Below are positions 24,563-63,891 of a stretch of DNA of 64,000 nt, in pieces. The position numbers and the translations under genes were made by a program. The number at the start of each line of letters is the position of its first letter. Within the stretch, counting starts at the first letter, position 1. The notes beneath the pieces are model-generated. The model was not told the DNA's origin. It did not search any database and was given only the letters and a program-made list of their open reading frames with translations. Origin of the DNA: Piedraia hortae CBS 480.64 (Eukaryota); contig MU005999.1 in NCBI GenBank assembly GCA_010093745.1, positions 55,809-119,808 on the forward strand. Direction: 5' to 3'.

Positions 24563-27500
24563 ATGTGCTTCTATTCATACCATTTTTATCCTATATGCGG
24601 CCATGAAGAAGTGGTGCTGCACGCATATTGCGATAAAGCAATCACGTTGGGGCCAATACCAGAGCCAGAGGTGCCTGCCATTCCAACGAAGCGAGTAAGG
24701 TCCCAGAAAAATGGCAAGATGAAGGAAGAGAGCAAGGGCCAGAGTTCTGTCCAAAAAGGGAAGGAGCCACTCAGTAACGTTGAGCTTGGCACTTCTTCAA
24801 AGCTTCCACTGTCACAACACCCGCCCCCTGCAGCCCACATCCACTCTACATCATCCGTCACTGGACAACAGAGACAGTCGCAGCTAGATAAAACCTCGCA
24901 TATCAACAGGATGGAGGCTCCCATAGCCATCAATCCATCATTGGTTCTTGACGATGCAGCATCGTCACCGACTTGGTCACAACACACTGTAAGTTGAGCA
25001 ACTCTTCAGACTGCGCTGTGCTGACTTTTATTCTAGTCCTTGCGGAAGCATCAAGGTCGCGAGGACAGAGGCTCCGAGACAAACCAATCGCTTGGGGAGT
25101 CGCGGCTTGTGTATGTTTCCGTTCGTCATTGTTGGATCATCCTACTAATATGGTTTCAGAACGAAGCACGCTGAATCATCCGAGGATCGCAATGTCAGGG
25201 GCATGACTCAAGTCACGTCACCGCCCACCGATATTGTCACCAACGACAGGGAACGTGTGGACTCTAAGCCGCAACCTGCCAAGTCGTATGCAGCCGCATT
25301 GGGTATACCCTCTACCCGTCGCGGGCCCCTCAACAAGCCATCGGCATCCAAGCAAGAGGTTGACACTGCAGCATCTCATGCCAAGCAGGTGAACATCGTC
25401 GAGGCCCCCTCGGCCAAGAAGTCGCTGCCTCATTTTGCTCAACCAACCAAAGCTTCCACAGCTCGGCGTGCACCTGATTCGAAGAGCCCAAAGCGTAAAT
25501 CTCTGCCCAGCGCTTGGGTGGGCCAAATGTCTAACCTAGACAGCGGCCAAGAAGACGCACTACCGTCTCGTATCGCGGCACCTACTACAGAAGCTACCGC
25601 GGCACGTGCTACAGAACTGCTTGGTTACAAGGGTGATGGAATCAATACGATTGCTTCAAATGAAACGCGCAAGCCGTACAGCACGCAGTTGACTGAAGCT
25701 GCGGCAATTCTCAGATCCACACTCATGAAGACTCCCCGCTCGAAGACTAGTGGAAGAGTCCATCCAAGCAAGGGCCTAATGAAACTGAATGAAGGCATCA
25801 GCAAGGTTGTTCTTCGGCCAAATGTCAAGGGTACAAGTCGCATCAATACTTCTAGTCTGACTAGCGCACAACCACCGGCTGCGAATCAGGCAAAACTGCC
25901 AAAGTCGCACGAGACCGCCACACGGCCAGTCGCTTCAAATTCGACAAGTCCGCCTGAGAAGAAATCTGAGCACAAGATTCTTGGCGTAGCAAACACTAGA
26001 GTCAGACGTCGGGACATAGAAGTTGATGATTTTCGTAGTATCCGCGACAAGGTCGGCGCTCAAGGCTTGTTGAGAGGAACGCTTCCACCCGGAGCTCAAT
26101 ATACTCAGGATATACTCAATGAGGAGAAGCGGAGAGAGAGCGGCATGTCAATTAAGGATATTGAACCAACTCTGAGGGCCAATGCAAGGGCACTGGAAGA
26201 AGTTGCGTCGAAAATTCGTCAAGGCGCGGGGTACTCTGCGGCCATACAGCCGCACACAAATGTACAGCGACTGAGCGTGGATCCTTTGTCGTCTGAGACA
26301 CCGCGAACGCAATCACGCCTGACTAGCGTATCTGAACTCGATGATTCTGACCTGCAGATAATTGTGGACAAAGCTAGCCCTGTTCAGGCCAGTGTCCACG
26401 AAGAATGGAAGGCGCCAGAACCAAGCGAGCCAGCCTTGTCCATCTCTTCTCCAGCTACAGAACACACAAACCCGACAGGCGCAGACGATGTCAAGGCACC
26501 AGCTTCGCGATTGCGTGCTAGCGCCGAGGAATTTAAGCCGATGTGGAAGCCCGTCACCATAGCCCAGGAGCTTAGTCTGCAGTCTTGGCGTGGTGACCTT
26601 GATTGGTACTCGGATGAAAGGTGGGACGCAATGCCACAGCAAATGAAGAATTGCGTCTTGATGATGCGCGACTTCAAGCGTATGGGCGCGCAAAGTGCTA
26701 CCAGGGGCCAAGGCAGTCAACCCTCGAAGCGTCAGATGATGCGTTTTTGGGGTCGCCTCATGACCAATTCGCCTGTTATCGATGAGTTGGCGTCGCGAGA
26801 TCCTGGGTATCACGATGCTATGGAACCTCACATGGGCATGAATCCCAATTATGAGATGCAGATGCAGATGCAGATGTCCGGCCCAGCCTTGCCGTATGGA
26901 CCGGCTGCGCAACCAGCTCCTGCCCACTTTGGTCCGGTTCAATGGGCACCGTCTGGTCCCGAGAGAGGCTTTGTGGCAGCTGGACCGGTCCGCAAATCGC
27001 CCACGAGACCTTTCAAGGGCAAGGATAAGAGTAGGTCACCCAGAAAGATTGAACGCGTCAAGGATAGCCCAAAGGCTGAAGATGCGAAGATGACTAACTC
27101 GAGTCAACCGAGCAAAGATGCAGATGAAGGCCAGCCAACAGCTGAGTCTCACGCCAGGAGTGATTCTGGACTCTTCACCAAGCAGGATTTTCCTCCGCTG
27201 ACGAATGCTGCAATCAGTAATGCGATGCCGACAAGCTCAATGTGGGATAATCCTCCCAACGCAAAGAAAGTGTCCTCGCCGACGCCCATGTCTCCTGCCA
27301 GCAAAGCAGTCGCCAGCAACCTTTCCCCCACAGCAAAGCCTTATACGTTGCCAAGTCCTACGTTTGGCAGGAAAACGTTGCCTTCAATCCAGCTGATTGA
27401 ATTTGCCAATGCGAAAACGCAGAGCTCAGCCGAGCCTTCGAAAATGTTTGATTCTGACGCCAAGGGTGAAACGAAAGATGTTGGCGATAAGGACAAGCCG

Positions 27501-27803
27501 TCAGTGTCAAGTGGTCCATCAAAAGCCGCGGGCCCGATTTTCACACTGGAAGACTTCCCTTCGTTGGATACTGTTGCAGGCAAGACCATTAAGAAGGGCG
27601 GACAAGTTGGCAGCAGGGTTGTTGACAAGGAAGAAGCTCAGAAAGAGTCCGTAGGCGAAACGCGGCAGCCACCAGCAGTCGACGGCACCCAGTATTACAA
27701 GCAAGTATGCGGAAATGTCGAGCTTATTCAAGCAGTTGGACATATGCCATTGGACAACCCGACTGTTGGATTGTGCCACGCCTGTTATGATCCAAGGGAT
27801 TGA
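24563..27803 (+). CDS. Largely disordered hypothetical protein (about 1047 aa) with a PAM2-like motif, two introns
   Basis: Introns 24989-25036 and 25111-25159 join ORF 24437 (from MCFYSY) in frame to ORF 25203-27803. Contains SRLRASAEEFKP. Confidence 0.8.
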
Positions 27804-28939: not shown

Positions 28940-30032
28940 TCAACTGAGGCTACGTAGTAGACCACGTGAGTGTTTGATCGATGCGAATCCTCGTTTCGAG
29001 GGTCGCGATTGTCCGCGAGCACGACGTGTCTTACCGGCTGTCTGTCGTGTTGGGTAGGGTCGTTGTCGTGGCGTCTGAAAGTCGGAGTTGCACAAATGCA
29101 GGGTTGGGAATTTCGAGAACAATGTAGGTATGGCCCACAATAAAGACTTGTCTTGTGAATGCGAGATGGTTGGCGGAGGGGCTCGAATTGAAGGGCCCGA
29201 GGAAACTGGCAGCATAGGCCATGTCAGGGCGCGACACGTTGGCTAGAAAATCGAGACACCCCACTGTGCTCTGGAAGAGCTGCCGGCGCTTTGGATCCTT
29301 GGGATTGTTGCGCGGGGAAGGAATGAGTTTGGATCAATCGGGACGGTACGAATATTCGAGTTCGCCATATTGAAGCGCCGCAAGACCTCCAGCGCGTAGG
29401 TTCGTTGATGCAGTTTGATACCGTTTGGGAAATGCCCCAACTTTAGACATGCTTGGCCGAGATCTTGAATGGTGAATGCCGAGCTAAGGGAATGAAGAAA
29501 GGGAGTGATTTCGTTTGTTGATGAGGAAGACTCTGGCTTCAGCACTCTTCATGTACCAATCCTCTATATCAGGACGGTTTTCGAACTCCTCTATGGACTG
29601 ATGGGACGGTCTGAGTGGCTTCGACCTCTTTCCATTGATGTACTTTAAAAGGCCTTGCGATGCTAGCAGGGACTCTACCTGGATGTCCCAAACTTTGCAA
29701 TTATCGCGTCCTGTTAGTTTGGTGATGCTCTTGTGCATTCCTGGAGCATATTGTCAACATTACTCCCACACAAAGGTCCATGGGTGTCGGCTGTAGGCCG
29801 TTCGATTTCAGCCAATGGGAAAGATGAAGGAACCACTCATGGCCAGACTCTTTTAGACCATATAAAGCTTTGACGAGATTGACGGCACCTGTTGGGAATG
29901 AGACGCCCGGCAGAGGAGGGGGGGGAGGGGTTTCAGTAGTATAAAGGTGACTCTCAGATCAATTTGGCGAACACGAGACTGAAGTATCTTCCTATAATGA
30001 TGTCTAGCTCCAAAGACTATTTACCGCCAACA
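28940..30032 (-). mobile_element. Internally deleted, frameshifted Ty1/copia retrotransposon remnant with a candidate 5' LTR
   Basis: Gag N-terminus KLTGRDNCKVWDIQVESLLASQGLLKYING. Late RT motifs FTIQDLG...LHQRTYALEVLRRFNM and GCLDFLANVSRPDMAYAASFL. A TGTTGG...CCAACA segment at 29890-30032 lies upstream of gag. Confidence 0.85.
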
Positions 30033-31169
30033 TGACACATCAGCGACATGGGCCGCTCCGCCTACCGACTCCAATCTTATAACAATCAGCCGGGCTGGAT
30101 ATACCATCGTGCGCGATTTGCCTTGATCTTGGTAGCCGTGGTCCCATTACCTTTTGATCGTTTGGCTTGGGTTGGGATGAAGGTGCTCTGTCGTGCGCTA
30201 TGTGTTTATCTTACAATGAGGGTAAACAATGTGGGCATAGTTGTTCTAGCCAAGACTGCGTACTTTTTGCTGGCGTCAATGTTTGCGCAAATGCTTAGTG
30301 GTCGGTGCGTCGCGTGATATGCAAGTACGGACACCAAGTACATCAATTCTATTCTCAAGGGTTGTTACGTGTCCCAGCTTACGCGCCGTCTGGGGCATGA
30401 GATCCATATGTAGTCATCACATTTGTCTATCATCGTTGATAGCTGGCATCGTGACAGCGGTGATGATAGCAGTCGCACCAGAGAGGTCGTAGTGTGTATT
30501 CCCATTTGGCAATGTTCGATTATTATACAGGTTTCTCGGTCAATGTCATGCACGCTCCTATTTTATGTAAGTATTGCTGAGCGCAAGGTCCATTTCGAGG
30601 GCCCTTCCACGTAAGAACAATATTACACAATGGCACCGTGAGCGATTTATCATCTAAGTATTTACATCACCAGCTCCAATATGTAGCTGCTTATGATTTC
30701 TAGGAAAAACCATGTATTATGTTGTGTTGATGCACATCTAATGAAGCCGTCGTGAATTGACCCGCCAGCTTTGACTGCACACAACACAGCAACCAGGCCA
30801 CGTGTAAGCCTCAAACAAAGTATACTGGACAGTCAGCATCTTGAAATAATGACAATTGGGGCTATGCAGGGATCGGGTGGCTCACAGGCGTTGTGTCTGC
30901 GAAACAGGACACATTGGGTACAACTGGGACTGAAAACAGTCGAAGAAAGTACCATATGAATCTGCAGTTTTGAACAAGTTAGTTCGTAGCTATGTAGAAC
31001 AGTTTCGTATGGTGTTTTCCGCGTTTAGTGTGTCAATCTAAATTGTACAGATAGAAATGAAATGCACAATCAGGGGAAGGGATCCCCTATGTTTACTTCC
31101 CTGCGTCACCATCTTCATCTTTGCATCATACACTCGCTCCTAGCATTAACCAGTGTCCAAGTAAGGGAC

Positions 31170-31622
31170 ATGACAATCCCCAAGGCGTGCAGCTCTCCTG
31201 AGCTACAATATGGTAGTACGATGTGCCAGCTTATGGGAGAGATCAGGAACGACCTCATCCGCACGTTGGATATATATGATGAAGCGGTCAAGCAGGAAAG
31301 GCTTGAAACCAACTGGAGGAAGATGATCTCACGCTGGCGTAGGCATATCGAAGCCTTGGTGTATCTGCCAGATACCGATCCAGGATTGACTTTCGAGAAA
31401 GTTGCTGACAAGGTTTATTCAATGCTTAAATACAGTCGTTACAATGCGTTCGGCATCATGGAAGATTACCCAGTCACGATGGAGCTAACTCATGATCTTC
31501 TCAAAAGCTGGCGGTCTGAGATCGGGGCACTTGACAAGGAGGGCGATGCTCACCAGGAAGCGACTAATCCACCTAAACGTGAGGAGAATGTAATTCACGA
31601 TGAGACTCCACAGACTATATGA
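31170..31622 (+). CDS. Orphan small protein (150 aa), distant member of the 56906 family
   Basis: Intact ORF. It shares IR..LI..L.(I/V)Y...VK, RR.I.A..VY.P, S..KY and MELTH with ORF 56906-57307. Confidence 0.6.
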   Translation: MTIPKACSSPELQYGSTMCQLMGEIRNDLIRTLDIYDEAVKQERLETNWRKMISRWRRHIEALVYLPDTDPGLTFEKVADKVYSMLKYSRYNAFGIMEDYPVTMELTHDLLKSWRSEIGALDKEGDAHQEATNPPKREENVIHDETPQTI

Positions 31623-38084: not shown

Positions 38085-40625
38085 CTAAGCTTGGAAAACC
38101 CCCTGACCTGGAAACATACCCTCCACCTCATTTATAGACCGATACATGAACCGAAACGAGACATATGGGTGCTGCAGCGAATCAATGTACAGCGGATGCT
38201 GGGTCCTGTGCGTGTACTCCTCTTCAGGGGCAGACTTCCCTCCTCGGGTGGAAGGCGGCTGCGAGAAGGAGGAATGCTGCGCGGACTCGTATAGGGAGCG
38301 GAGGTGTTGAGTTTTCGATTTATTCGGTGAGGCGTTTTCTTTGTGGGGAAAGGTTTTATCTTTGCGCGGGGAGACATTCTCCTTCCTCAGCGAAGCGGTT
38401 GCTTCACGAAACTCGTCCACGGACTTGTGAGGGGAGATATTCTCCTTCCTCGCCGCTTTGCGAGGGGAGAGCTTAGGATCCTCCGAGGCCTGCGTATCGT
38501 ACTTCATCGATGAGACATTGCCCCCACGGCCACCCTGCTGATGAACAGCCCTCTGACTCCATATCTGCCAAGCCGGAAGAAACTGCACCGCGCCAGGGAA
38601 CGCTGTCGTGGGCCAGTGGTTGATATTAGACCCCTCCGCGATAGAGGGTGAGGGCTCGCTGCGGTGGCGAGAATGCGTCTTCGATGGGGTCGGGGTGGGT
38701 GTATTTTCTAGCCAGCGCTCGATGGTACTGGATTTCTCACTGGAGTTTTCGCCCTTCTCGGGACTAAAGACTTTCCATGCCGGGAGGGCAGTGACGCTTT
38801 GGTGTCTGGTCAAAGTGTGGGTTCCTGTGGATGGCTGGTTGTTGAGCCAGGATTCGATTTTGGTGTAGTTTCCTGGGGTGGTGGTGGTTTCGGATTTGGT
38901 GTGGGTTGAGGTAGGTTGGAAGTGTTTGGCCGGCGAGGGAGTCGCTCTGCCAACGATTTTGGGGCGGATGGGGGGTTCAGTCCCTGGTTTGGACTGTTTG
39001 ACTGGTGAGGTTGTCTGTCTCTCAACGGTTTTGGAGCGGCCGCGTTCATTCTCTACGAGACTGGACTGTTTCTGCCAGGACTTGGCCGGAGATGAAGCTG
39101 CTGAGGCATCCTTCTCTGGGCTGAGACAGCGATTGCGATCCTGAAAGGCAGTGTGGTAGGACGTCGGAGCAGTACGGAAGCTTTGGGTCTCACTGCGCTC
39201 CTCACCCCATATCTTTCTCATACTCGACACCTTGCTGGTTGAGGGGAAATCCGACTGGAGATTGTCAATCCATCGCTCGACTTTGGAAGGTGTGGCGATG
39301 GTTTTATTGTCATCTTCCGCCGTTGAAACAGGCTTGCGGTTGGACGGAGGTGGTACACTCTTAGCAACTCTAGGATTCTCCGTATCGCGCACGCTCTTAG
39401 GACGCTGATGGCGAATCCAGTCTTCCACCAGAGCAGACTTTCCGGCGTTCAAGGCAGGTTCACTCCTCAGACGAGAATGGCCAGACTGGCGGAGCCAGCT
39501 GCTGACTTTGGGTGATTTAGTTTTCTGGTCAAGTGCCTCATCAAGTGCAACGCCCTTGCCGGCGAGACGAGACGCGCTCCCGTCTTCAAGCTGTGCAACA
39601 CCGCGATCCAACGCACTCTTCGCCAAACGAAGGTCAGTACTGCGCTTTGCCAGGGCATGCTGCATGGCTGCTAGAGATGCCGCGGCGATGCCAGGCTTGG
39701 TCGCTTGCAGCTTTGTACGAACCGTATGTGCTTCAGCTTTAAGAAGTGCAATCTGGCGATCAAACTCTGCGATGATGCCTGGAATCGCCTCTTCAGGAAT
39801 CGTTACCTTGTGGCTTCCATCAGGGTGGATAGTAAGTTTAAAGCCAGCAAAAGGATGCGGCTCAGAGAGAAGTGGGTGGGTGATGGTCGACGGGCGAGAC
39901 TTGGGCGGCTTCGGGAGCTTACTCTGAGATAGCTCAGTAACGCTAGTCGCCGGCACAAACACTCTGAGTTCTGTAGGACCTTCCGACTTCTTATCCTCAA
40001 TGGCATGCTGCTTGGAGCCAAAGGAGAGCCGTTCAAAAAATGAAGAAAATATGCTGTCCGATGGGCTGTTTTTATGCTTGTGCTCATGCTCGCTGCTGGT
40101 GCCGTCTAAGTGGAGCCTGCTCAAAGACTGAAACGACTCGGACAAAAAGTTAATAGACTTGGCATTGGGCACGTAGCCATCGTAAGCGTTCGTACAGCGC
40201 AAGATAAAGACATCAATGGTGCCGAATCTGTCATTGGATCCTGACTGATTCGTCACAACAGACCTAGCCCGGGCAAAAGTCCAGCCACGGCCTATGAAGC
40301 CACTATCCCTTTGGGTCTTGCGGACCTCTTTCTGCCGTAGGACAAATTCCGTTTCGTACTCATCCTTGTCAACACCGGCACCGGGCAGTCGCAGGCCTGT
40401 GTGGTTGCGATTACACTGGTAGATACCGTCAATGTACACAGCGACCGCAAGACCGGGCGCAATATAACCGTGAGTTTGAACGTGCACGCTAAAAGGTGTG
40501 TAGATGTCTGGAACCGCAATATACGTCTCGGCCATGCCGCCAATATACTTCGTCCCGTGCTCTTTGAGCTTTGCGCCTTGAAGGCCGAAACCGATGGAGC
40601 AGCTGACTTGATTGAGAAATGGCAT
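38085..40625 (-). CDS. Conserved fungal hypothetical protein (split DUF7918-like domain around a long disordered insert)
   Basis: N-terminus MPFLNQVSCSI...GYIAPGLAVAVYIDGIYQCNRN...GTIDVFILR. C-terminus YIDSLQHPYVSFRFMYRS. The family assignment is from memory. Confidence 0.8.
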   Translation of the reverse strand: MPFLNQVSCSIGFGLQGAKLKEHGTKYIGGMAETYIAVPDIYTPFSVHVQTHGYIAPGLAVAVYIDGIYQCNRNHTGLRLPGAGVDKDEYETEFVLRQKEVRKTQRDSGFIGRGWTFARARSVVTNQSGSNDRFGTIDVFILRCTNAYDGYVPNAKSINFLSESFQSLSRLHLDGTSSEHEHKHKNSPSDSIFSSFFERLSFGSKQHAIEDKKSEGPTELRVFVPATSVTELSQSKLPKPPKSRPSTITHPLLSEPHPFAGFKLTIHPDGSHKVTIPEEAIPGIIAEFDRQIALLKAEAHTVRTKLQATKPGIAAASLAAMQHALAKRSTDLRLAKSALDRGVAQLEDGSASRLAGKGVALDEALDQKTKSPKVSSWLRQSGHSRLRSEPALNAGKSALVEDWIRHQRPKSVRDTENPRVAKSVPPPSNRKPVSTAEDDNKTIATPSKVERWIDNLQSDFPSTSKVSSMRKIWGEERSETQSFRTAPTSYHTAFQDRNRCLSPEKDASAASSPAKSWQKQSSLVENERGRSKTVERQTTSPVKQSKPGTEPPIRPKIVGRATPSPAKHFQPTSTHTKSETTTTPGNYTKIESWLNNQPSTGTHTLTRHQSVTALPAWKVFSPEKGENSSEKSSTIERWLENTPTPTPSKTHSRHRSEPSPSIAEGSNINHWPTTAFPGAVQFLPAWQIWSQRAVHQQGGRGGNVSSMKYDTQASEDPKLSPRKAARKENISPHKSVDEFREATASLRKENVSPRKDKTFPHKENASPNKSKTQHLRSLYESAQHSSFSQPPSTRGGKSAPEEEYTHRTQHPLYIDSLQHPYVSFRFMYRSINEVEGMFPGQGVFQA

Positions 40626-40763
40626 TGTGTGCAGTCTCAGGTGCGATGCCAAAGTAAGTGACAGAGCGATCAGAGTGCGACCGCGACACATCGCGCCAGC
40701 ATGTTTGTTTCCATAGTGACATCTCGCGCACCTTCCGTATTCGGTGTCGCGCTAGCAAAAAGT

Positions 40764-45097: not shown

Positions 45098-45577
45098 AGT
45101 GAATACAAGTGTATCTACGAGGGGACATCAGATACTATATTCTGGGCTGGAAGGCCCGTGCGTAGCCTCGTATGAAGAGTCATCAATCGTATGACCGTAA
45201 GCAAGTGGTTATACAAGCAGTAAGGCTGTCAGCATGCAGTAGGATTGTCAGCATGCAGTCTTACTCCATGACTCACCTCAAACAGTAGCAGGGCGCATTC
45301 ACCATGTCGCATGCGACATGACCCTGAGGGAAACCTCTGTGAGGACAAAACCTAGGGTGCAGCTGCTGGTGTCAGAGGTGTCGCGCAGTGGCATCGTACA
45401 CTCATAGCAACGAGGCTTCATGCCAACAGTTGTTGTCTTCACATGTGATGCAATGACAGCTGCCAACTGTAGCGCGACGTAATTGAACCAAGCGACCCAC
45501 AGAGACACGGGATGATCAAGTAGTCATTCATAATCTCACCCATGTACACCTGAGATAGAACAGCTACAAATATCACA
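45098..45577. mobile_element. Solo-LTR-like dispersed repeat, copy 1
   Basis: The core at about 45286-45435 aligns by eye with the reverse complement of about 59757-59917. A second matching patch lies at 45111-45145. Ends in TCACA. Boundaries are approximate. Confidence 0.6.
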
Positions 45578-52569: not shown

Positions 52570-53143
52570 GTCTGCCAGGTGCGTGGGTTCCAGACGGTGG
52601 GAGGTGGGAGCGGGCGTATGGTGCACGTGATGTCGAGTCGGCGGTTGCAGCTATTTTAGGCCATCCGGGGGATTTTGATTGGCCGTTGCTTTAGCGGGAC
52701 GGAACGAGGGGTTAATCCTGCGGGGAATTGCTTTTGTTTGGTCCCGGAACAGCGTGGTTTTGAATGGCGGGACGTGGATGACATGGAACGGCATGCATGG
52801 TCTGCGAATGCTTGCCACATGTTACATTCTGCTGGAAGCCTTGGAAGGGAACGGAAATGTCCTGCTTGAATCACGCCGAACCCAGTCGCAAGACGACCAG
52901 CACTGCTTAAAATAACCTGCAGACTGCGTCCACCCACCGACTTTAACGCCCGAAACATGACGGGTTGGAATTCGAACGCGGGGGCATGGCGCTGCATGAC
53001 GCTGCATGACGCTTGTCCGTTTGGAGCGAAGGGCCCTGAAAGTCGGGCAGTCCCGGCGCCCCGGCCAATCAAGTGTCGACGTCTAGTGTTCAGCTGTCAA
53101 GCGGGGAGATCCGCGCTTTTGACATTGCGGATCTTCCCGGTTG

Positions 53144-54739
53144 ATGTCATCGACAACGACATCACCTAACATGGATCAGTCGGCGGCCAACCGCGAGGCC
53201 TACGAATACTGGGGGTATCTGTTCAAGGCGGACAAGACAGGCACCGATAAGCTGCGGTTCCTGCTGCAGGGACTCAAAGATTACATCAATCAGACTTTCG
53301 AACCGTCAGATCAGCCAGACCTACTGCCATCTCAAGTGGCCGCCTTCTATCGCAGCGTGCACGGAGACTATGACCAGTTGTTCCTACACACGCCGCCCGA
53401 AAGCATCGCTTTCATTTACAAGAGCCTAGGATGCCTGCACTCGCTGCAGCCATTGCCTGGCGCGGCCTTTTCCGATCCTACTATTCCCGCGCTCAAAACC
53501 GAGGGTTGGATTATGTGGCAGACGATCCAGCTTTTGCTTGGGCCAGAGGAGCATGCTGGCTTCCTTATAGAGGCTGTGCAATCGTGTGATATTCGCGACC
53601 ATGCCACTGGCGAGCTCTTCCCCAAAGTTTTGTCCCGCAGCTGCTTCCCGAGCGAGCCCGATAAGCACATGGTTGCCTGGTACGAAGGCGTCAGCGAGAG
53701 GCTAAAACGTGAGGCAGAGGAGGAAGCTCAAGGCGTACATGAGCCGGAGAGGGATGACCGCCGCCGCCCCGAGCGCTATCAGGTGCGCGGTGAGTACGAC
53801 GACGACGGCTCGCTGACATCGCGGGGGCCGGCTCTGGCTTACTTCCGCAATCCGCTCTACCGCCACGTGGACGGCAGGCCGAGTATCGTCCGTCGTGCTA
53901 GCAAAACCCGGGCGGCAGTCAAAGGCAAGGAGGCTGCAATGGCCGTTGGCCACGTCTTCCGCAACATTGGCTCTCCGCACCTCTGGGATGGCAATGAAAA
54001 GGACCGATTGCGGCGGAAGAGTGTGCCTGACCGTCATCACTATCGAGACGACTCCTACAGCCGCCAACGCCACCTGCACAGCTCCGACAGCGAGTACGAC
54101 TTGGAGCCACTCCCCGAACACCGCTCCGTGTCGAATAATTCCCGTCCGCGCCAGTCACACAGCTACGAGGCCATGCCGAACCGGCGGAGCGGTGAACATC
54201 CTCCTCAGCCGCCAGGACGTCGTCCGTCGCCCCCATCGCCAACCTCGGAGAGCTCAGACAGCGACGTTCGCCCCGGTGCTGGCTTCGCGCCATCGGCCGG
54301 ACCGTTGTTTGCCACCCAGGTGGCCCATCATCCGCCCGTGCGTCGGGAAAGTCCGCGGCGTTTGTCACGTTCACGTTCACGTTCACACTCACATTCGCAT
54401 TCACGTCACGGCCCCGTTGAACGGGATAGACGTGATAACTATAGCACTGCTGATCGGCGTGACAGGCGTGAACGTCATGGTCCCCGTCGGTCGCTGTATT
54501 CTGATGATGATGACGATAATGACCCTCCTCGTCGCCCCGCCTTTGGGCGTAGAGTGTCCCGTTCCTTGGACGGTCGACAAAGTTATGACCATGACGATGA
54601 TCGCAGGCGCAGCTCGAGGCCCAATGGTCCAGAGAGGGATGAGTCTCCCCGAAGAGGAAAGTCCATTCGCTTTGCTGAACCACCGTCCATCAAAGGGGTA
54701 GATGGGAGACGATATGCTGACCCCAGTCCATGGCGGTAG
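53144..54739 (+). CDS. Conserved fungal protein (DUF7514-like N-domain) with an R/S/D-rich tail
   Basis: WGYLF, AAFYR.V.GDYD.LF, IYKSLGC.HSLQP, IPALK and WQTIQLLLGPEEH. Confidence 0.85.
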   Translation: MSSTTTSPNMDQSAANREAYEYWGYLFKADKTGTDKLRFLLQGLKDYINQTFEPSDQPDLLPSQVAAFYRSVHGDYDQLFLHTPPESIAFIYKSLGCLHSLQPLPGAAFSDPTIPALKTEGWIMWQTIQLLLGPEEHAGFLIEAVQSCDIRDHATGELFPKVLSRSCFPSEPDKHMVAWYEGVSERLKREAEEEAQGVHEPERDDRRRPERYQVRGEYDDDGSLTSRGPALAYFRNPLYRHVDGRPSIVRRASKTRAAVKGKEAAMAVGHVFRNIGSPHLWDGNEKDRLRRKSVPDRHHYRDDSYSRQRHLHSSDSEYDLEPLPEHRSVSNNSRPRQSHSYEAMPNRRSGEHPPQPPGRRPSPPSPTSESSDSDVRPGAGFAPSAGPLFATQVAHHPPVRRESPRRLSRSRSRSHSHSHSRHGPVERDRRDNYSTADRRDRRERHGPRRSLYSDDDDDNDPPRRPAFGRRVSRSLDGRQSYDHDDDRRRSSRPNGPERDESPRRGKSIRFAEPPSIKGVDGRRYADPSPWR

Positions 54740-54958
54740 GCGGCCTTTGAAACCGTTACATAGCCTGACTCAAATTCTGATATCCCCTGCAATGTAAAAT
54801 CTCCCTGCATAACTAACTGCCAATTTCATCCAATTGGTCGGTGGGTCCCGACCGTTTGGCTTCTGTCAGCCTACACAATTAAGCAAAGTGGGTCCATTCC
54901 TTGTGCACACTTCTGTGCAACAGTGACAAACAACACAAACACAAACACCACATCGATA

Positions 54959-56185
54959 ATGCGTTCTTTCAACCTTGGTGCTGCAATTGCGGCGACGTTC
55001 TCGGTATGCCTGGCTGTATCTTGCAACAGCACTACCAAATGTCCTGAATCCGCTCCCTGTTGCTCCCAGTATGGCGTGTGTGGTGTTGGTGCGTACTGCC
55101 TTGGTGGTTGTGATCCACGATACAGCTACGATTTTCACTCGTGCCTGGCAGCTCCGGCATGCAAGAACTCGCTCTATGAATTCAAATCACTGTCCAAATT
55201 TGCGAGCAATACAGAATATCTTGGTGACTCTAACGGAACAGACTGGGTAATTTCTGGCACGCCCGTGATATACAACAATGACAGTGTGCTCTTGACCATG
55301 GCGGAGGGGACTGTAGGAACGTTGCTCATGAGCACGCATTATGTGTGGTACGGAAAAATCAGTGCCAGTCTTACCACAAGCCAGGGCCAAGGTGTTGTTA
55401 CAGCCTTCATCCTGATGAGCGATACCCATGACGAGATAGACTTTGAATTCGTTGGGGCCGATGTGTCTAATGCGCAGAGCAACTATTATTCTCAGGGGAT
55501 TGAAGATTGGCATAATGAAAAGCACCTCGCCGTTCCTGGTGGAGATAGTCGCCAAGAGGTACACACATACACTATTGATTGGCAGCCAGATTACATTTCG
55601 TGGTTCATTGATGGTCAGCAGCTACGCACTAAGTTCCGTAACGAGACTTACAATTCAACTACCCAAAAATACGCCTTCCCCCAGACCCCATCCAGGGTAA
55701 TGCTTTCTCTCTGGCCTGCTGGCGCCGCAGGAAATCGACAGGGCACCATTGATTGGGCTGGAGGACTCGTCAACTGGAACTCGCCGTATATGCAAAACGG
55801 CTATTACTACGCCATTGCTCACAACGTCTCAGTAGAATGCTACAACCCCCCTGCGGGTGCCGGAAGCGGCAATGCTTATTTTTACAAGAGCGTTGAAATC
55901 GATGAAAACAGCGTAGCTCTGGGAAACAACGGGACTAGTATTAGGTCTTTGGGCGCCACCGGCGATAATCCTCAACCTGAAGGGACTGTGGACAGCGCGA
56001 ACTCTGTTCCTGGTGTATTTGGTGCCGGTAATATTGGCAGTGACGGTAACTCGAATGGACGAGCTTCTCCCAATCCAAACGGTGGTTTCCAACAGGGTGA
56101 CTTGGGCGGTACAAGTCAGGCTTCGAAAGTTGTTGCTGGCGGCGCGGTTGCATTGTTTGGCCTCTTTGTGGCGTGCTTGCTCTGA
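54959..56185 (+). CDS. UTR2: GPI-anchored chitin transglycosylase (CBM18 + GH16, Crh2/Utr2-like)
   Basis: Signal peptide, CPESAPCCSQYGVCGVGAYCLGGC, catalytic DEIDFEF, PQTPSRV.LSLW, GTIDWAGG and a hydrophobic C-terminus. Confidence 0.95.
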   Translation: MRSFNLGAAIAATFSVCLAVSCNSTTKCPESAPCCSQYGVCGVGAYCLGGCDPRYSYDFHSCLAAPACKNSLYEFKSLSKFASNTEYLGDSNGTDWVISGTPVIYNNDSVLLTMAEGTVGTLLMSTHYVWYGKISASLTTSQGQGVVTAFILMSDTHDEIDFEFVGADVSNAQSNYYSQGIEDWHNEKHLAVPGGDSRQEVHTYTIDWQPDYISWFIDGQQLRTKFRNETYNSTTQKYAFPQTPSRVMLSLWPAGAAGNRQGTIDWAGGLVNWNSPYMQNGYYYAIAHNVSVECYNPPAGAGSGNAYFYKSVEIDENSVALGNNGTSIRSLGATGDNPQPEGTVDSANSVPGVFGAGNIGSDGNSNGRASPNPNGGFQQGDLGGTSQASKVVAGGAVALFGLFVACLL

Positions 56186-56905
56186 AACGATACCTAAGAG
56201 GAGGCCCCTATTGAACAGTGTAAAACTTTCAGAATTTTTACGCTCTGTGCCGTCCTTCACTTCATGTTTCTGTGAAGTCGACGCATGAAATCAATACAAC
56301 TAAGAGCAGACCTAAAAAAAACAACCACAGGAACCATTCGTAATCGGACGTTAAGCACTCCTCTCCACTATCTGTCTGCTCTAAAGCAGCGCACGTTTTC
56401 ACAAAGTTGAAGATGATTGTCAATGGACGGGTATCAATCGCGACATATCCATGCTCATCCGGATAGACGAACTTTCACTCGAGATAAGCGATTATGTTGC
56501 TACTCCCCCGAATGCTTTGCTACAGATGCGTCGGGTCCTTCTCAGCAAGAATACCATTGTGGCTTCTCGTGTTTGCAAATGGTTGTCGCGAGACATGAGC
56601 TGTTTTGCCGTTGACGTTGGCGTGCCATGAGGAATGTTTAACTACGATCGGCTGAGCCATATGTAGCGGGAGAGCATGAGAGCCTTTTTGCCGTAAACAT
56701 CGAAATATACCAATTAAAGTAGTACTAAAGGGTGTGAGTGTTCCAATTTGTAGCCTCCCAGTCATCGACGCAGGCCCTCTTTCCCCTTTAGCAAGAAAAT
56801 ATACATTTGCAACATACCTCACCACCACAACTCCATCGTACATCAACCAAGCATCAACACCTACCAACCACCAATAAACCACTAAAAAACCCACCCACCC
56901 CAAAA

Positions 56906-57307
56906 ATGCCACTCACACCCCCCCTCTTCGAACCCTGGCAACAAACCCGACTGGTCTATATTCGCGGCGCCCTCATCACATTACTATCCGTCTACACAGA
57001 CGGGGTGAAGAACAACTACCCAATTCTAGACCCCAATGTGATCGAAGAACGACGTCGTCGGATCGACGCCGCCTTTGTATATGCCCCCATTTACCGCCAA
57101 AAGCAAAGCTACGACGACCTCATCAGGGATATGTCCTCGACTATCAAATATGGGATTCCGGGTCAGGAGGAAGGAGAGGATAGTATGGAATTGACTCATG
57201 AGATGACAGATATTTTCGATAGGTGGGAGCAGGATATTCTTAAGGCGGAGGTGGGGTTTAGGAGGAGGGAAAGGGAGAGGAAGGGAAGGGAGGGAGGGGG
57301 AAATTGA
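56906..57307 (+). CDS. Orphan small protein (133 aa), intact family member
   Basis: ATG follows a CA-rich leader. A tandem paralog about 1 kb downstream supports coding status. Confidence 0.75.
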   Translation: MPLTPPLFEPWQQTRLVYIRGALITLLSVYTDGVKNNYPILDPNVIEERRRRIDAAFVYAPIYRQKQSYDDLIRDMSSTIKYGIPGQEEGEDSMELTHEMTDIFDRWEQDILKAEVGFRRRERERKGREGGGN

Positions 57308-57873
57308 AAGGGGGGAGATTGTGGAGAGGAGGAAGAGGAGAGCGGGAAGGAGACTGGGGAGGATGGTAGGAAAGAGGGTCCGTCAAAAGCACTTTTTACG
57401 TTGGATAAGAAGCGGCCTGCTACAAGGATGTAGGTTTGGGGATTGAAGAGAGGGAAAAGGGGCCTCTCTTGGGGATATATGGCCTTTTGGGGGCGTGTTG
57501 CTATGCTGGGTATACAAATCATTTGCGATTAATTTTCTGGTTTCGAAGGCGCTGCATAGCATTTCTGATGGCTGGATATATTATCCCTTCTCTGCTGCCT
57601 GCTCTGTGTGGTGATATTTCGGTCTGTTCAGCTTACAGGTTGCACCTTCCACCTGAGACAAAAACGATAACAGCATTGTAAGTGTATTAAACCCACCCTC
57701 AGTTGATTTCCATCAGCTGACGGTGAGTTTCAGCAACGTAGCCCCTTATACCATTTCAGTAACAAAAACATGGATCCACAATAAGTCTCAACACTATCAT
57801 TTTCCACCTCCACGTCACAAACTCATCAAGCATCAACCAACCACCAAAGCAACCCACCACAGTAAACCCCAAA

Positions 57874-58221
57874 ATGCCGCCCCACAACACCCTCTTCAAA
57901 CCCTGGCAATAAATCGAGCTAGCCTACCTCCGCCGCGCGCTGAACGACATCCAGAAGCTCAACCCCGGACTAAACCTCTCTATGGTTGAAAAAAGGCGCA
58001 TTTAGATTTACTCCTCCTTTGAGTATGTCCCGATGTATCACTCAACGAAAAGCTATGACGATCTCATCGCGGGCCTGTACTCAGATATTAAACATGGCAT
58101 CCCGGGCAAGGAGGCTGTTGGAGGTATCGAATATCTGATGCATGAGAATTTGGACATTTTTGATATTTGGGATGGGGTATCATCCAGGCAGAGATTGATT
58201 TCATTGAGCTCAAGCGGTTGA
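57874..58221 (+). pseudogene. Tandem paralog of 56906 with two premature stops
   Basis: MPPHNTLFKPWQ*IELAYLRRAL...VEKRRI*IYSSFEYVPMY...SYDDLI...IKHGIPG...DIFDIW. Stops at 57910-57912 (TAA) and 58003-58005 (TAG). Confidence 0.85.
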
Positions 58222-59627
58222 AGAGTGTGAAGGTAAGTGCGGAACAGGTTGATGAGGTGGCTTCGTCAAAGGAGGTTCTGGGAAGAATGGAAAGAAGAAG
58301 AAGAAAACGACGTTTGGCGATAAGGTAGATTGGAAGTATGGAGGTAAGAGGAGAGGGGTATCGCTTGGGGCTGGGATGTGATGATATTGAACGCTGGATA
58401 TACAGTTTGTTTGAGATAAATTTTCGAGTTTCAGGCTACTGCATAGCATTCGTGATGGCTAGATGTACCGAGAAGCTTTGTTGTGCGGTAGGGAAGGCAC
58501 TCCATGGACGTTACAGTGAATTTTTTTTCAAGTTCAGCGAGTATTTCCAAATACATGAACGCCGAACATAGCAAGGAGAATGTCTACGACTATCCTCTAA
58601 TGTGAGCATACGCCGCTGAATTTATCAGGTTCTCTCTCAAATGGAGTTGTACCTGTGGTTCAGGTTAAGACTTGTGAAGTGGCAAATGCGATCCCGTTGG
58701 CAGGTATCATGGAACTGTAATGTCCGCTGTCAAGAAATGAAATCGACGTCAAGGACAGCAATCCTCAGACAAGAGCATCAACAAGTGAGGCTCAGCCAAA
58801 CTCTTGGGAACGGGTGGCGAGGGCGGAGGAGGCGGTACTTTACATACCTTCCGCGAATAGACAAGCGCCAAAGACCAGACTAGACGGCTGAAGCGGGGTT
58901 TGGCGCATGCAACGCCACCTTGCCCCACGATTGGCTTCTTATCGCCTCGCTAGCCGCCTTCATTCGTGATTGGCTGATAACACACGCTGCCCAAACACCT
59001 GAGGTCTTGGCACCATGTAGCCTGGCTTGATGAATCACAGCTATGTACTTGTTGTGCGGTCTCCAGGGACTGTACATACAGCCTCTTGTCAGTTTATCTA
59101 CTACTTTGAAGCACATTTTGCCTCTACTCTAGTGACACTGTCTGGGGGTGGAATTTTGCGACAGCTGCTATTGATATAGCACCCATAAACAAGCAAGAGA
59201 ATCAGATAACAATCAAATTGAGTTCATACGGTAGTGGTGTTACATGGCAGAATGTAGCATCATCTCTGCGTTGGAAGTGAGGTTATAGTCGCTGTTAATG
59301 TCATCAGGAGCCAATAATTCCTTTGAACGTCGCTTGTTGAAAACCATGCTCAATAGCACATGAGCGAAAGCTGAGCCTTGGCCAGGTTACTGAGTTTCCT
59401 TGTCGATCGCCGATCTTCCCCATGAGCCACAATCGCCACCACAATACAAATCTGTCATAATTTCATCCAACCACCAGCAACGTTCAATAGAGACGTTGTA
59501 AGCACCTCATGGAGCGAAAAACAGTGGAGAATGTACTGGACGATACATCCGTACCTTCGGCAAGCAAGATCTGCATACATAGACCCGAGTTTGACCACTC
59601 CGGAAGCGGCGTCAGCATTTTATCCAA

Positions 59628-59997
59628 TGTCAAGACACAGAATTAGAGCAATCGAGATCACGCTGAATCGCATCGACACGCCCACGACCGGCCTAATGAC
59701 GCGTATGACCGGAGTATTGACGCTCCCGGCTGACGTATTGACTGCCGTGACCGGATCAATTGTTGGATTCAAGCATCGCCGCTAGCGCGTATGCAGGGCA
59801 CTTGCATAGCAAGTCAGCGATACCTCCTACACTACCGGCTGCACCCTAGGTTTTTCCCTCGCAGAGGTTTTCCCTCAGGGTCATGTCATATGTGACATGG
59901 TGAATACGACCCGCTAGTGTACGACGTGACGTCACCGGCCCACCGGTACAGAATTTTTATTCTGAACGTCCCCTCATTGAGATAGTCATTTTTCACA
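59628..59997. mobile_element. Solo-LTR-like dispersed repeat, copy 2 (inverted relative to copy 1)
   Basis: TGTCA...TCACA termini, 370 bp, with a core shared with 45286-45435. No target-site duplication. Confidence 0.65.
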
Positions 59998-60022
59998 CTA
60001 CCATGCTGCAACTGGTATTTGA

Positions 60023-60394
60023 CTCACATACGTCTACATCTTTCCTGTCCCTGATTCCGTCTATCGCTCCGTCCTCTTCGGGTCGCTGTGCACTCTCACC
60101 CACGAGAGCCAAATCCCTTCATCAATGACGCCCACGACCGAGAACTCATCCATCAGCAAGTCGGAACGTGAAAACAGACGCGAAAATCTCGCGGCTGCCT
60201 ATTGGCTTACTCATATAATCCCAGACTGAACGAAAAACAAGTTTAATGAGTATGTGGCTCATGTCCTTTCGTGCTTATTATATGGCGCCCCCTGCTGGAT
60301 TTATCGCGATGGCAACCCTGGGGATATCTTGCAGCGAATCCTGAGGTTAATCTCTTCATGGGTACAAGATGTACAGCTGCACAAGACTATGTAA
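60023..60394 (+). pseudogene. Possible fourth, highly diverged member of the small-protein family
   Basis: One frame reads ERENRRENLAAAYW...PD*TKNKFNEYVAHVLSCLLYGAP...ILQRILRLISSWVQDV, with TGA at 60227-60229. No 5' start is evident next to the LTR-like element. Confidence 0.4.
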
Positions 60395-61029
60395 TTGGGG
60401 TCCTCAATGATCGGAAGATCATTGAGCGGGCTTCTTTATAAGTTGGACGGCATTGAAGGGGAGCTTGATTTGTTTTGAGCAAGCGCTAGAAAGCGTGTTG
60501 ATGTGCGACCATCACATGTTGTATTTGAGGTAATTGACAAATGCATACGAAGGGTCATATGACGCGGAGTGTGTAAGCCCAGGAACCTGGTGGACTGGGT
60601 GTGTTTGTTTTTATGTTTTGTGTGTTTGGATGTCTTTTCTACGGGAATGTTGGGGGTTTTGTTTATGATCACCTTTTATGTTTATCAAGTCTTAGACAGA
60701 AGCCTACTTTTCGATCGGCTTACTTCCTTCGTCTACCTTTCCCGTCATCTTGTGTCGACCAAGTTATTCAAAGGGCTAGCCATAATATATTGCCCAGTAG
60801 TATCGTTGTGCATTATTGGGTCCATTCGACGCCTCATCGCCAGAACATTCGTATCCGGCCTTGACAGTTGTGTGCGCCGCCTTGGTCTGGAATTGATTGC
60901 ACTAGCCTACACTTGCCCTACCGCACAATCATCCCCTCCGGTGGAAATATGCTATAATTCACATTTCAAAGCAGGAATTCTCCCAAGATGATCGTACCGT
61001 ATTAAAGCTATTTTGCTACCATTAAGCTT

Positions 61030-61332
61030 CATCAGGGCCCAAGCAGAGATGCGACTGGGTTATACAGATAATGTGAACAATAAAAAGGACATCCACGTGT
61101 TGACCTACTCCACACTCTGGAGGCACACGTGGGACAGGGTTGCTCATGTAGGGTCCACACCCGTGAGCAGTGCCAGCGGGTGATGCACAAGGCACGACCA
61201 ACGAGACTGCACAAGGACATCCTCAGCTCTTTGCTCGATACCAAGCGCACAGCGGTATGGCTCCTCAGGACAAGCTTGCTACAACAATTTCGTGTGGCCG
61301 TGCCCACAAGAGACGAAGACAGCGAGATGTGA
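61030..61332 (+). mobile_element. 3' fragment of a Tad-like LINE ORF2
   Basis: IHVLTYSTLW and DILSSLLDTKRTAVWLLRTSLLQQFR match the typical C-terminus of fungal LINE ORF2. Confidence 0.6.
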
Positions 61333-61339
61333 GCGGCAC

Positions 61340-62300
61340 CGTTGACGCTGCGCTTTGGCGGACTTTGTAGGGCGCAGTTTCAGCCATTCGTCTGACAATA
61401 AGGCGTTCCAGACCTTTGCCGAGAAAGGAGAGCAGGGCGAGATTTCGGAATCATAACCACTTCCGCTGTCTTCCATTGCGAAAGGAAAAGCAGAGGCAGC
61501 TGTGGCGATTGTCAGGAACCACATTTTGACATCTTGCCAGCATGTCTTCGAAAAGCTCAATGGTCCCAAACGGCATCCCAATCCACAGCGATCTTCATAG
61601 TAACTTTGGTTTGCCATGCCTGTTCCCTGAGAACATGGGCAGTGCCGGCAAGACTTGCCTGTGTTGGGCGGCGGTGTACCGGAACTTTTTCTGACCATTC
61701 CTGTCGTTTCAGTACTCCTCTACACAGAGCCCCTGCCCTTTCAGTGTGTCTTCGATTATCTGGTCATTTAGTCTGGGAATCAGTTTGTGCCATTCTACAA
61801 TCTTGTAAAGCTCGCTCTCCGTCGAGATATCGTCGACGTCTCGGTGTAGTCTCTGCCTAGGACTTGGGTGAAACGACGAGCGGCCCATCTTCCAGCTGAC
61901 TGGCAGGAAGAACACGTACCCGGCGGTAGATTTGTCCAAGTCGACAAAAGACAGATCCGTGTACCCCAGCTCACGGTCGAGTGTGGAGCCTTTGTGAGAT
62001 ATGTATGTATGCCCATTGCCTTGGTTCCAAGGAGGTGTCGCAAGACGCGTTTGGCTGCATCGATAGAATATGGCCGTTGTGGACCGCAGCCTCATCTTGC
62101 TTATCCAAGCGAGCCATGAGTGCTCTGTGTGCTTGGAGTTCTCGAGCCAAAAACCGCCAGCTTCTTCCTGATATTTCTATCAGCTCGGGATGACACCATA
62201 TGATGCACTCTGCAAAAAAAGTGAAAAACATGATGTTGGCAACAACATGGATCGTTGGAACCGTCCATCAGCCGGGTGTAGAGTGACACTAGTTCAGCAT
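61340..62300 (-). mobile_element. Degenerate Tad-like LINE (endonuclease, linker and start of RT)
   Basis: SHKGSTLD (endonuclease), ELYKIVEWHKL (linker) and FRNLALLSFLGKGLERLIVRRM (RT, about 61381-61450), with stops and frameshifts. Confidence 0.8.
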
Positions 62301-63891
62301 GGTGTCATCGTCGTCTAGCTCGCTCATTCGGGGGAGAGTGACCCCTCCAGTCATTACTGGTGCTGGACGCACCGAGAGGGAACTTGCCCATAAAGTGCGT
62401 TCCTAGCTTTGGCACTATTGTACATATCTCGCGTCAAAACGATTGGCAACGAGTTTCCCGAGTGAGGGTAGGTCATCTGATGACCTCATTCCATCTGCTG
62501 TGAGATCAAATTTCGCGTAGTGGTGACTGGAGCATATTCCATTTTTCCAGGACGATCAATAACTTCCAGCCAATTAACATTTGGCGTCTGACGGATGTCC
62601 AACGCCACTCTCTGCTGCCGTTCCCTGTACGGAATCATTGCAATTTGCAAGGAGATTTGAAGCTGGCGCAGTTTCTCCAGAACGCTTCCATCAGCCTTGT
62701 GTAAAGTCCACCCCTTGTTTAGGATGACCCGATTTTTGTGGTTATATTCATCAACAACATCGACCTCCGTTGCTAGCCTGACTTCGGGCCAGGCCATTCT
62801 CACCCATTTCTTTCACTGCCTTCGAGAATGTCAGTCGGTCATCAGGGCTACCCAACTCGACGCTCGTCATCGGTCCAGGTCGGGAGTGTAGACTGACTTG
62901 CCGGACCGCTTGGCGGATAGGCTTCCGTGAGGTGGTCATATATCTCCTCAAACGTTTGAAGCATTAAGGCGATGGAGGGGACTGCACGAGAGCGGCTTTT
63001 ATAGATGCATTCCTGGCGTGACATTGGGTATATACCCCCTCATGGAGTTTCGCGATTGTGAAAGGTGATACTGCGTCGAACAAGAGGATAGTTAGTCCCA
63101 TTTGCTCACTGCCTTCTTCGACTTATCGCCCACATTTCTCAGTTTGTCGTCGTACATTGTGCCTTTGATAACCAGGTCCAGCGCGGGGACAGTCGCTTGA
63201 TCTCAGGAGACTCAAGTCTTCATACAACGGCCCGTGGCCTTTGCGTATCTCTTTGTGGCAGCCACTCATAATTTCAAGCTCACCGCGAATGGGATGCTGC
63301 TTCCAGATAGGGCGTACTGTGGACGTTGTGGATACGTCGAAGGAAATGTGCGCATCTCCTAACCATCTGAGGTAGGTCAGTACGATTAACGGCACTGTGG
63401 AACCCATAATGCACCATAACGGGCACACTGGATGGCCTACAGGCGTCCGGCTGCGTGTATGTGATGTCGCCTTCGATGAGGAATAATTCCAATGGGTGTG
63501 CTTGTGGTTCTTCCGCATTCTTCGAGGCGGCGCAAGGGTTGAACCCGCACAAGGCAAAAGAGCCATGCTGATCTTCTTCCGGCGTGGTGGTATCAAGTTC
63601 TTCGGAAAGGGCGACACTTTTGGCTGTGCCCAGCTCTTTCAAGAGAAATCTGGGCCGGTAGATAGTCTGAAAACCACATTTCACGACCCAACACTGCATT
63701 TGACAGGCGCATGCAAGCGGGCAAACGCCTTGTACGATTTTTGGGACCAGTCCAAGCCAAACTTCGTACAAAGGACACTCCTTCCGATAGCTGCTCTGTG
63801 CTGCGCTGCAACGTGCAGAAGCGGAGGATGCAACATGGCCAAATCAAAGATTCAGAAACATACCTGCCGAATGGAACGCCAAACGCGCAAC

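Follow-up and report, generated by a model that had tools for sequence, protein, structure and literature searches.

Small orphan families of fungi evolve through ordinary tandem duplication and pseudogenisation. Fungal genomes also house genetic-conflict families such as the wtf genes of Schizosaccharomyces pombe, which are poison-antidote meiotic drivers encoding multi-pass membrane proteins. In the kinetochore scaffold KNL1, MELT motifs occur in repeat arrays and, once phosphorylated, dock BUB1-BUB3 (PMC4558858). Fungal genes are further described by McLean and Tirosh 2011 (PMC3315797) as carrying a gene-anchored composition skew that is C-biased at the 5' end and G-biased at the 3' end.

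The window analysed here, a 64,000-nucleotide stretch of Piedraia hortae CBS 480.64, contains three copies of a small homologous gene family, each a single ORF:

56906-57307, + strand: copy A, intact open ORF, 133 aa, stop included
57874-58221, + strand: copy B, tandem pseudogene of A, in one frame
31170-31622, + strand: copy C, intact distant paralog of A, 150 aa from the ATG aligned with the start of A

These copies probably represent an ordinary orphan family, taxonomically restricted, whose proteins would be small, acidic and soluble and form four helices. A and B are 41% identical over 108 aa (BLASTP E 6e-26), and A and C are 29% identical over 99 aa (E 4e-6, z 9.5); neither score was reached in 3000 shuffles. 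The comparison of B with C is by itself non-significant (E 0.26; 589 of 3000 shuffles reach the score), so that C belongs to the family through its alignment with A alone. A family HMM run over six frames of the 64-kb window recovered exactly A, B and C, the next best match having an i-E of 1.7. No DNA-level match of A with C was found in the window self-BLAST; the likeness is seen in the protein only, as long protein-level constraint would give. An earlier sequence-only reading had listed four intronless copies, and three of them stand: the intact 133-aa gene at 56906, the broken tandem copy at 57874 and the distant intact copy at 31170, all of them single ORFs. The remaining one is the following:

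60086-60394, + strand: claimed copy D, unsupported as a family member

Proposed as a diverged broken copy at about 60023-60394, D gave no BLASTP alignment with A or C at E<=100 and was not reported at E<=100 by the family HMM (--max, all six frames of the window). Its Smith-Waterman score with A is 46, a value reached by 1 of 3000 shuffles and ranking 11th of 2316 six-frame windows, among which an unrelated match at ~5.6-5.8 kb scores 51. The first ~30-90 bases of D fall inside a high-copy repeat (59761-60114, see below). A C-to-G skew flip of lesser strength, near 60320, also falls within D and may account for its similar composition gradient.

Copy C lies on the same strand as A, 25.7 kb away, and is annotated in NCBI/UniRef, where it forms a UniRef cluster of one; in the database entry (P0001) the protein begins at 31062 and is 186 aa long. 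The protein of copy A is acidic (pI 5.3) and Cys-free, and its ATG stands within ccaaaaATGcc. Its exact sequence has no entry in the protein collection and is therefore unannotated, and the family profile search returned no database gene model containing it. A longer spliced model for A was rejected, there being no in-frame ATG upstream and no longer protein from the profile search. Copy B has two in-frame stops, TAA at 57910-57912 and TAG at 58003-58005, one of which is a CAA to TAA change, and has lost eight codons (A residues 24-31). The residues common to A and C that B has lost include MELTH; no identical stretch shared by A and C is longer, and in B it reads YLMH. GTAAGT stands immediately 3' of the copy B stop. 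RIP was considered as the sole source of A-B divergence; the alignment holds many types of change at 60-70% identity.

The A-B dN/dS is 0.39 (NG86, 113 codons; bootstrap 0.17-0.73) at a dS of 1.18, values obtained near dS saturation by a crude method and from units whose strong skew could bias both dN and dS. The ratio points to purifying and not to positive selection. Because A-B dS is ~1.2 and A-C dS is saturated, the duplications are old. Under simulated neutral drift of 0.3-0.59 substitutions per site, 1.2%-0.25% of 4000 A copies kept the ATG and an open frame. Together with the A-B dN/dS and the protein-only likeness of A and C, the simulation indicates that the reading frame is kept by selection, an argument about conservation that is based on paralogs inside one genome. 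The fast divergence under conflict and the frequent pseudogenisation proposed earlier are not supported by these data: the selection estimate is below one, the duplications are old, and B is the sole broken copy among the three, the alleged second one being unsupported as a family member.

A less likely alternative is that only C works, A being a silent relic still free of stop codons and the array at 56.9-58.5 kb a dying duplicate pair. C is annotated and A is not, none of the 10 other single-exon ORFs at 56.5-61.7 kb is in the protein collection, and the C-terminal tail of A, RRRERERKGREGGGN, is encoded by the G/A-rich arm of a composition skew and has no counterpart in B or C in the alignment. 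However, a 133-codon frame with its ATG survives the divergence in just 0.25-1.2% of the simulations, the A-B dN/dS stays below one despite a partly neutral B branch, and A retains the C-shared residues that B has lost. Contigs of a run merely guessed to be RNA cover 53000-56482 and 60145-61000, with scraps at 56520-56775, 57322-57491, 58400-58568 and 59146-59788; they do not cover ORFs A and B, which is uninformative either way because contigs drop rare sequence.

In the surrounding DNA, A and B form the coding parts of two tandem units:

56860-57585, + strand: tandem unit 1, 5' leader, ORF A and 3' flank
57820-58470, + strand: tandem unit 2, leader, copy B and 3' flank
57505-57580, + strand: conserved 3' element, ~200 nt past the A stop

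The 3' element is 78% identical to 58393-58467 behind B and is better kept than the coding part. Rfam gave no family for it in 56000-62500, the sole match being sR32 (E 0.057, under the cut-off), and on both strands its fold is no more stable than that of shuffles (z +0.06 to -1.08). It is possibly a 3'-end signal. Unit 1 carries the strongest flip from C-rich to G-rich in the window (-0.67 to +0.81, near 57080) and unit 2 the second strongest (-0.53 to +0.66, near 58090). The flip sizes are 1.48 and 1.19, against at most 0.97 for the other genes of the window, and copy C is without such skew. The pattern is identical read from either strand, so + strand transcription of A and B is not proven by it. 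That the two shortest gene units bear the most extreme gene-end skew of the window may help studies of this unexplained feature.

The fold of the family was modelled from an alignment of three sequences. Copy A is predicted to form four helices (residues 10-35, 43-63, 69-81 and 91-111; pLDDT 72, pTM 0.65), and C is modelled with four helices in the same order at low confidence (pLDDT 56.5), in keeping with the helical look noted from the sequence. The usual membrane cut-off for a 19-residue Kyte-Doolittle mean is 1.6. The top value is 1.32 in A and 0.35 in the 150-aa C, below that cut-off, so neither has a membrane segment. Foldseek of the model against the PDB gave no match at E<=0.001, the best matches (E 0.79) being ROP-like bundles, bromodomains and a pectin methylesterase inhibitor. 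The best Z in VIA-align wide is 8.8 (pannexin, a designed binder), short of the ~13 given by the tool for helical bundles. The structural matches thus appear to be generic helical bundles only.

Searches by sequence likewise gave no known domain that explains the family, as had been noted before. Among 1,835,955,588 representative proteins, the family profile matched two at E<=0.001, C itself and a 2954-aa repeat protein (E 2.4e-4) that was judged spurious. A word-seeded search with A yielded 35 candidates, none at E<=0.01; ESM Atlas searches with A and with C returned no homologs; the best E in a PDB sequence search was 0.9; and none of 381 pattern matches in metagenome contigs was confirmed. 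Within the representative proteins and metagenome contigs, the family thus appears to have no homolog outside its lineage. Such an outcome is expected, because even the conserved neighbouring DUF7514 protein has relatives only 45-71% identical over half or more of the protein; in so isolated a lineage, homology searches fail.

The window also contains three pieces of transposable elements (TEs):

59761-60114, no strand assigned: high-copy dispersed repeat, solo-LTR-like, ~354 nt, from contig depth
45269-45384, - strand: inverted partial copy of this repeat, 118 nt, 82%
29000-29900, - strand: decayed copia-type pol debris, two colinear RVT_2 fragments in neighbouring frames

The first repeat, already recognised as LTR-like in the sequence-only reading, has a summed contig depth of ~9755 against 12.6 in the flanks, and many contigs diverge at its edges (59760/59761 and 60113/60115). 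The RVT_2 fragments have E values of 0.32 and 0.0032, both below the Pfam cut-off. An RNase H-like stretch was spotted by eye in the same debris. Apart from these pieces, the window is gene-dense housekeeping DNA: 19 of 26 large ORFs scanned have ordinary cellular Pfam domains and none has a transposon domain, and self-BLAST finds only the A/B duplication and the one 118-nt LTR fragment. Distances between TE pieces and copies are 1.2-2.4 kb, with the repeat 1.5 kb behind B and the copia debris 1.2 kb before C; neither self-BLAST nor contig depth revealed an LTR flanking A, B or C. The region 53000-59787 is spanned by a single DNA contig, free of differences and at flank depth (12.6), so A and B lie outside any high-copy element. 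The earlier description of TE islands was accordingly overstated, and the claimed LTR association of the copies is not supported. A transposon-encoded protein (gag or accessory ORF) was rejected as well, A and B being single-copy with no surrounding repeat and no TE similarity; none of A, B and C matched a transposon family in Pfam.

It is very unlikely that the family serves genetic conflict, be it as a meiotic driver or suppressor, in allorecognition or in transposon defence, with copies spreading and dying beside LTRs. This reading would fit a family with no known domain or relatives, one dead tandem copy, and the nearness of the LTR-like repeat to B and of the copia debris to C. However, the dN/dS has a bootstrap upper bound of 0.73 and the duplications are old; the 64 kb hold only three copies, none of them flanked by LTRs, and A and B sit in single-copy DNA; a membrane segment is lacking, and neither Pfam nor the profile search gave a match to driver, HET or NLR families. 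By a rough estimate, two loci would both fall <=2.5 kb from one of the three TE pieces of the window by chance in ~7% of cases. The wtf-like character suggested earlier thus finds no counterpart here, the family profile having matched no wtf protein.

The MELT letters of A and C are preceded by an acidic stretch and occur as one motif per 133-150 aa protein, which in A sits in predicted helix 4. A matches PF15402 (MELT_2) over 23 of 26 profile positions with E 0.0012 and 18.9 bits, short of the Pfam gathering cut-off of 24 bits, and PF15402 gave no match to C, B or D at E<=10. A working mimic of the Spc7/KNL1 docking motif on the Bub3-Bub1 checkpoint module, for example a decoy, would agree with this match, with the persistence of MELTH at 29% overall identity and its loss in dead B, and with the docking of phosphorylated MELT motifs on BUB1-BUB3 (PMC4558858); yet it is scarcely credible, as A stays below the Pfam cut-off, C has no match, the motif is single and in a predicted helix against the arrays of KNL1 described there, and the family profile matches no Spc7/KNL1 protein among 1.84 billion representatives. 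It is just as improbable that A and C are a lineage-specific, putative MELT display competing for Bub3-Bub1 and so tuning or subverting the spindle checkpoint. If this were true, such competition would be a route to segregation distortion and would give the conflict idea a concrete mechanism.

Under the preferred interpretation as an orphan family, an old duplication would have produced A and C, and a tandem duplication of ~0.7 kb, more recent yet also old, A and B, after which B decayed; A and C would have been retained as protein-coding genes by purifying selection. We infer the expression, fold and function of both proteins. The likeliest action would be that of a small helical-bundle module that binds a partner protein, either cytosolic or nuclear, and an enzyme, a membrane protein or a secreted protein would not be expected. 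The closeness to transposon scraps would be incidental, copies and scraps alike occupying the longer gaps, of which a compact genome has few. If this holds, the advance is a modest one: a small orphan family, probably of four-helix fold, is put on record, and the annotation of this fungus, whose genome is very compact, gains A as a hitherto unannotated gene and B as a pseudogene. The absence of homologs together with a nearby LTR is by itself no pointer to a conflict system; in this case the copies are old and not repeated at high number, selection appears purifying, and homology searches fail because of the isolation of the lineage.

Comparison with the described systems places the family as follows. 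As in the fungal gene-anchored skew (PMC3315797), the A and B units are C-rich at the 5' end and G-rich at the 3' end, into the flanks; they differ in being far more strongly skewed than the other genes of the window and very short. Like the Spc7/KNL1 repeats, A and C have MELT after an acidic stretch, with a sub-threshold PF15402 match in A; unlike them, A has one motif and no array, and the model of this 133-aa bundle places the motif in a helix. Like the S. pombe wtf genes it is a small family that includes dead members and has an LTR-type repeat a few kb away, whereas A, B and C are without membrane segment, introns or sequence similarity to wtf, no copy has a directly flanking LTR, and the A-B dN/dS is below one. 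From fungal orphan families no tested feature sets it apart, copies being counted in the 64-kb window, and it resembles them in its short intronless proteins with no domain and no detectable relatives, in its decayed tandem duplicate, and in belonging to a lineage whose sequenced relatives are distant.

The small-protein family comprises three copies in the window, A, B and C, two of them in tandem:

56906-57307, + strand: A, an open frame of 133 codons
57874-58221, + strand: B, which aligns to A within one frame
~56860-57585 and 57820-58470, + strand: the A/B duplication, with 60-78% DNA identity
31170-31622, + strand: C, aligned to A at 29% identity over 99 residues (E 4e-6)

The sequence-only reading had proposed four copies: an intact 133-aa gene (A), a broken tandem copy (B), a distant intact copy (C) and a probable, diverged and broken member, D. 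Alignments and an HMM bear out the first three, and the fourth falls away. The frame of A is open. B shares 41% identity with A over 108 residues (E 6e-26) and is broken by a TAA (57910-57912), a TAG (58003-58005) and a deletion of 8 codons. One contig of the DNA run X1 spans 53000-59787, including A and B, with zero differences; X1 is possibly the sample behind the window's assembly, and its contigs give copy number and no independent support for the stops in B. The A-C score was reached by none of 3000 shuffles (z 9.5). B-C on its own is not significant (589 of 3000 shuffles reach the score), as expected because B is a decayed copy. An HMM built from A, B and C, searched with all filters off against the six frames of the window, matched these three places and no further copy, the next match having an i-E of 1.7. 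Within the duplication fall a C/A-rich leader, the sequence context of the ATG, and an element on the 3' side. This 76-nt element lies ~200 nt 3' of the stop in A (57505-57580) and B (58393-58467); its identity of 78% exceeds that of the coding parts, and the words ATATACA and AATTTTC are common to both. It has neither an Rfam match nor a stable fold, and may be a 3'-end signal.

D (60086-60394) begins within an LTR-like repeat. BLASTP gave no alignment of D with A or C, and the six-frame, unfiltered HMM search no match. Its Smith-Waterman score against A (46) ranks 11 among 2316 six-frame windows, below an unrelated 22-residue match near 5.7 kb (51), and D was rejected as a family member on these results. 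D spans a C-to-G skew flip near 60320, weaker than those of A and B, which would give an amino-acid gradient resembling that of A without common descent.

The likeness between A and C exists at the protein level, with none at the DNA level. For A and B, dN/dS is 0.39 (Nei-Gojobori; bootstrap 0.17-0.73; 113 codons) with a dS of 1.18, the B branch being partly neutral; there is no sign here of the conflict-type evolution that had been suggested. Neutral simulation, with 4000 runs per distance, leaves the ATG and open frame of A intact in 1.2% when 0.3 substitutions per site have accumulated, and in 0.25% for 0.59. C is annotated as a 186-aa protein starting at 31062, a cluster of one. The sequence of A is absent from the protein collection, as are all 10 further single-exon ORFs looked up from 56.5-61.7 kb, and the profile search turned up no gene model that includes A. 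Taken together, these observations are best read as pointing to A being a real, predicted gene that was left unannotated.

The copies had been placed in transposon islands and linked to LTRs, and neither claim is supported. The window is fungal DNA, dense in genes: 19 of 26 large stop-to-stop ORFs carry ordinary cellular Pfam families (among them HMG-CoA reductase, ENTH, forkhead, cactin, XLF, Rad17/Rad24, kinesin motor, enoyl-CoA hydratase, SH3 and GH16), and none of the 26 a transposon domain. Two long ORFs, 25149-27803 (+, 884 aa) and 38085-40751 (-, 888 aa), match no Pfam family at E<=0.001. The transposon pieces lie 1.2-2.4 kb from the copies, and no copy is flanked:

59761-60114: the LTR-like repeat
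45269-45384: inverted fragment of the repeat, 118 nt
29000-29900, - strand: decayed copia-type pol remnant, with RVT_2 fragments in two frames and a weak DUF4219 match

The LTR-like element itself is real. Its summed contig depth in X1 is ~9755 vs 12.6 in the flanks, and at both ends many X1 contigs continue into differing sequence. At 59965, inside the repeat, 19 X1 contigs diverge from the window into a common alternative continuation (agreement 0.76); therefore the local copy carries an internal difference from the more frequent form, whether an insertion, a deletion or a rearrangement. The reverse transcriptase fragments of copia type are weak and colinear (~29.3-29.9 kb, - strand), and all RVT_2 and DUF4219 matches there are below Pfam cut-offs. 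In X2, a run that is RNA only by guess, a 1734-letter contig of depth 340 begins 30 bases past the repeat and ends at ~61880, near where an X1 contig likewise ends. It could be a transcript beginning or ending in the solo LTR. Its region (60145-61000 and beyond) has no Pfam domain, and two ORFs there are absent from the protein collection.

The A+B+C profile, read against 1,835,955,588 representative proteins, gave two matches at E<=0.001: C itself, and a 2954-aa repeat protein (E 2.4e-4) judged spurious. Further relatives were sought by word-seeded search, in the Atlas (two look-ups), by sequence in the PDB and in metagenomes, and none appeared. Missing homologs are expected, because paralogs have already diverged to 29% identity inside this genome and even the closest relatives with sequence data are far removed; taken alone, the lack of homologs is no sign of unusual evolution. 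The lineage is isolated, since a neighbouring DUF7514 protein, itself 100% identical to a database entry from Piedraia hortae, has relatives at only 45-71% identity over at least half its length. Among 101 Dothideomycetes, no assembly is smaller than that of Piedraia hortae (16.95 Mbp), and no gene count is lower (7,572; PMC7082219). The sequence-only reading was mostly right in observation and mostly unsupported in interpretation; we lean towards A, B and C being an ordinary orphan family, one tandem copy of which is dead.

A is acidic (pI 5.3), lacks cysteine and, by hydropathy scan, has no segment hydrophobic enough to span a membrane. The AlphaFold2 model of A, from a three-row alignment, predicts four helices (10-35, 43-63, 69-81, 91-111; pLDDT 72, pTM 0.65); that of C, from the same input, repeats this order of helices, though with low confidence (pLDDT 56.5). 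Foldseek and VIA-align returned generic helical bundles only, and our best guess is a putative small, protein-binding helical bundle. The 186-aa form of C adds 36 codons (31062-31169) ahead of the ATG that the alignment pairs with A and B, including a moderately hydrophobic stretch, HHLHLCIIHSLLALTSVQV (hydropathy maximum 1.16); this alignment supports 31170 over 31062 as the probable start.

Residues 86-108 of A match Pfam MELT_2 at 18.9 bits (E 0.0012), under the cut-off of 24, and MELTH, the longest run identical between A and C, is lost in B. A putative working mimic of the KNL1/Spc7 docking motif in A and C is nevertheless very improbable: C has no MELT_2 match and the A+B+C profile finds no KNL1 protein. 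KNL1/Spc7 motifs form repeat arrays that dock BUB1-BUB3 once phosphorylated (PMC4558858), whereas A has a single motif inside its predicted helix 4.

The A and B units carry the two strongest C-rich-to-G-rich flips in the 64-kb window (sizes 1.48 and 1.19; others <=0.97, the next strongest, 0.97, near 37080):

56750-57575: A unit, GC skew -0.67 to +0.81
57725-58475: B unit, GC skew -0.53 to +0.66

C (31.2 kb) shows no such flip. The proline/threonine-rich start and glycine/glutamate/arginine-rich tail of A arise because of this skew, which does not fix the orientation of the units because the pattern is identical on either strand. The skew marks both units as gene-like, each ~0.75 kb. In fungal genes, the coding strand is C-biased 5' and G-biased 3', extending into promoters and UTRs (PMC3315797), and the A and B units have the identical polarity to that described there.
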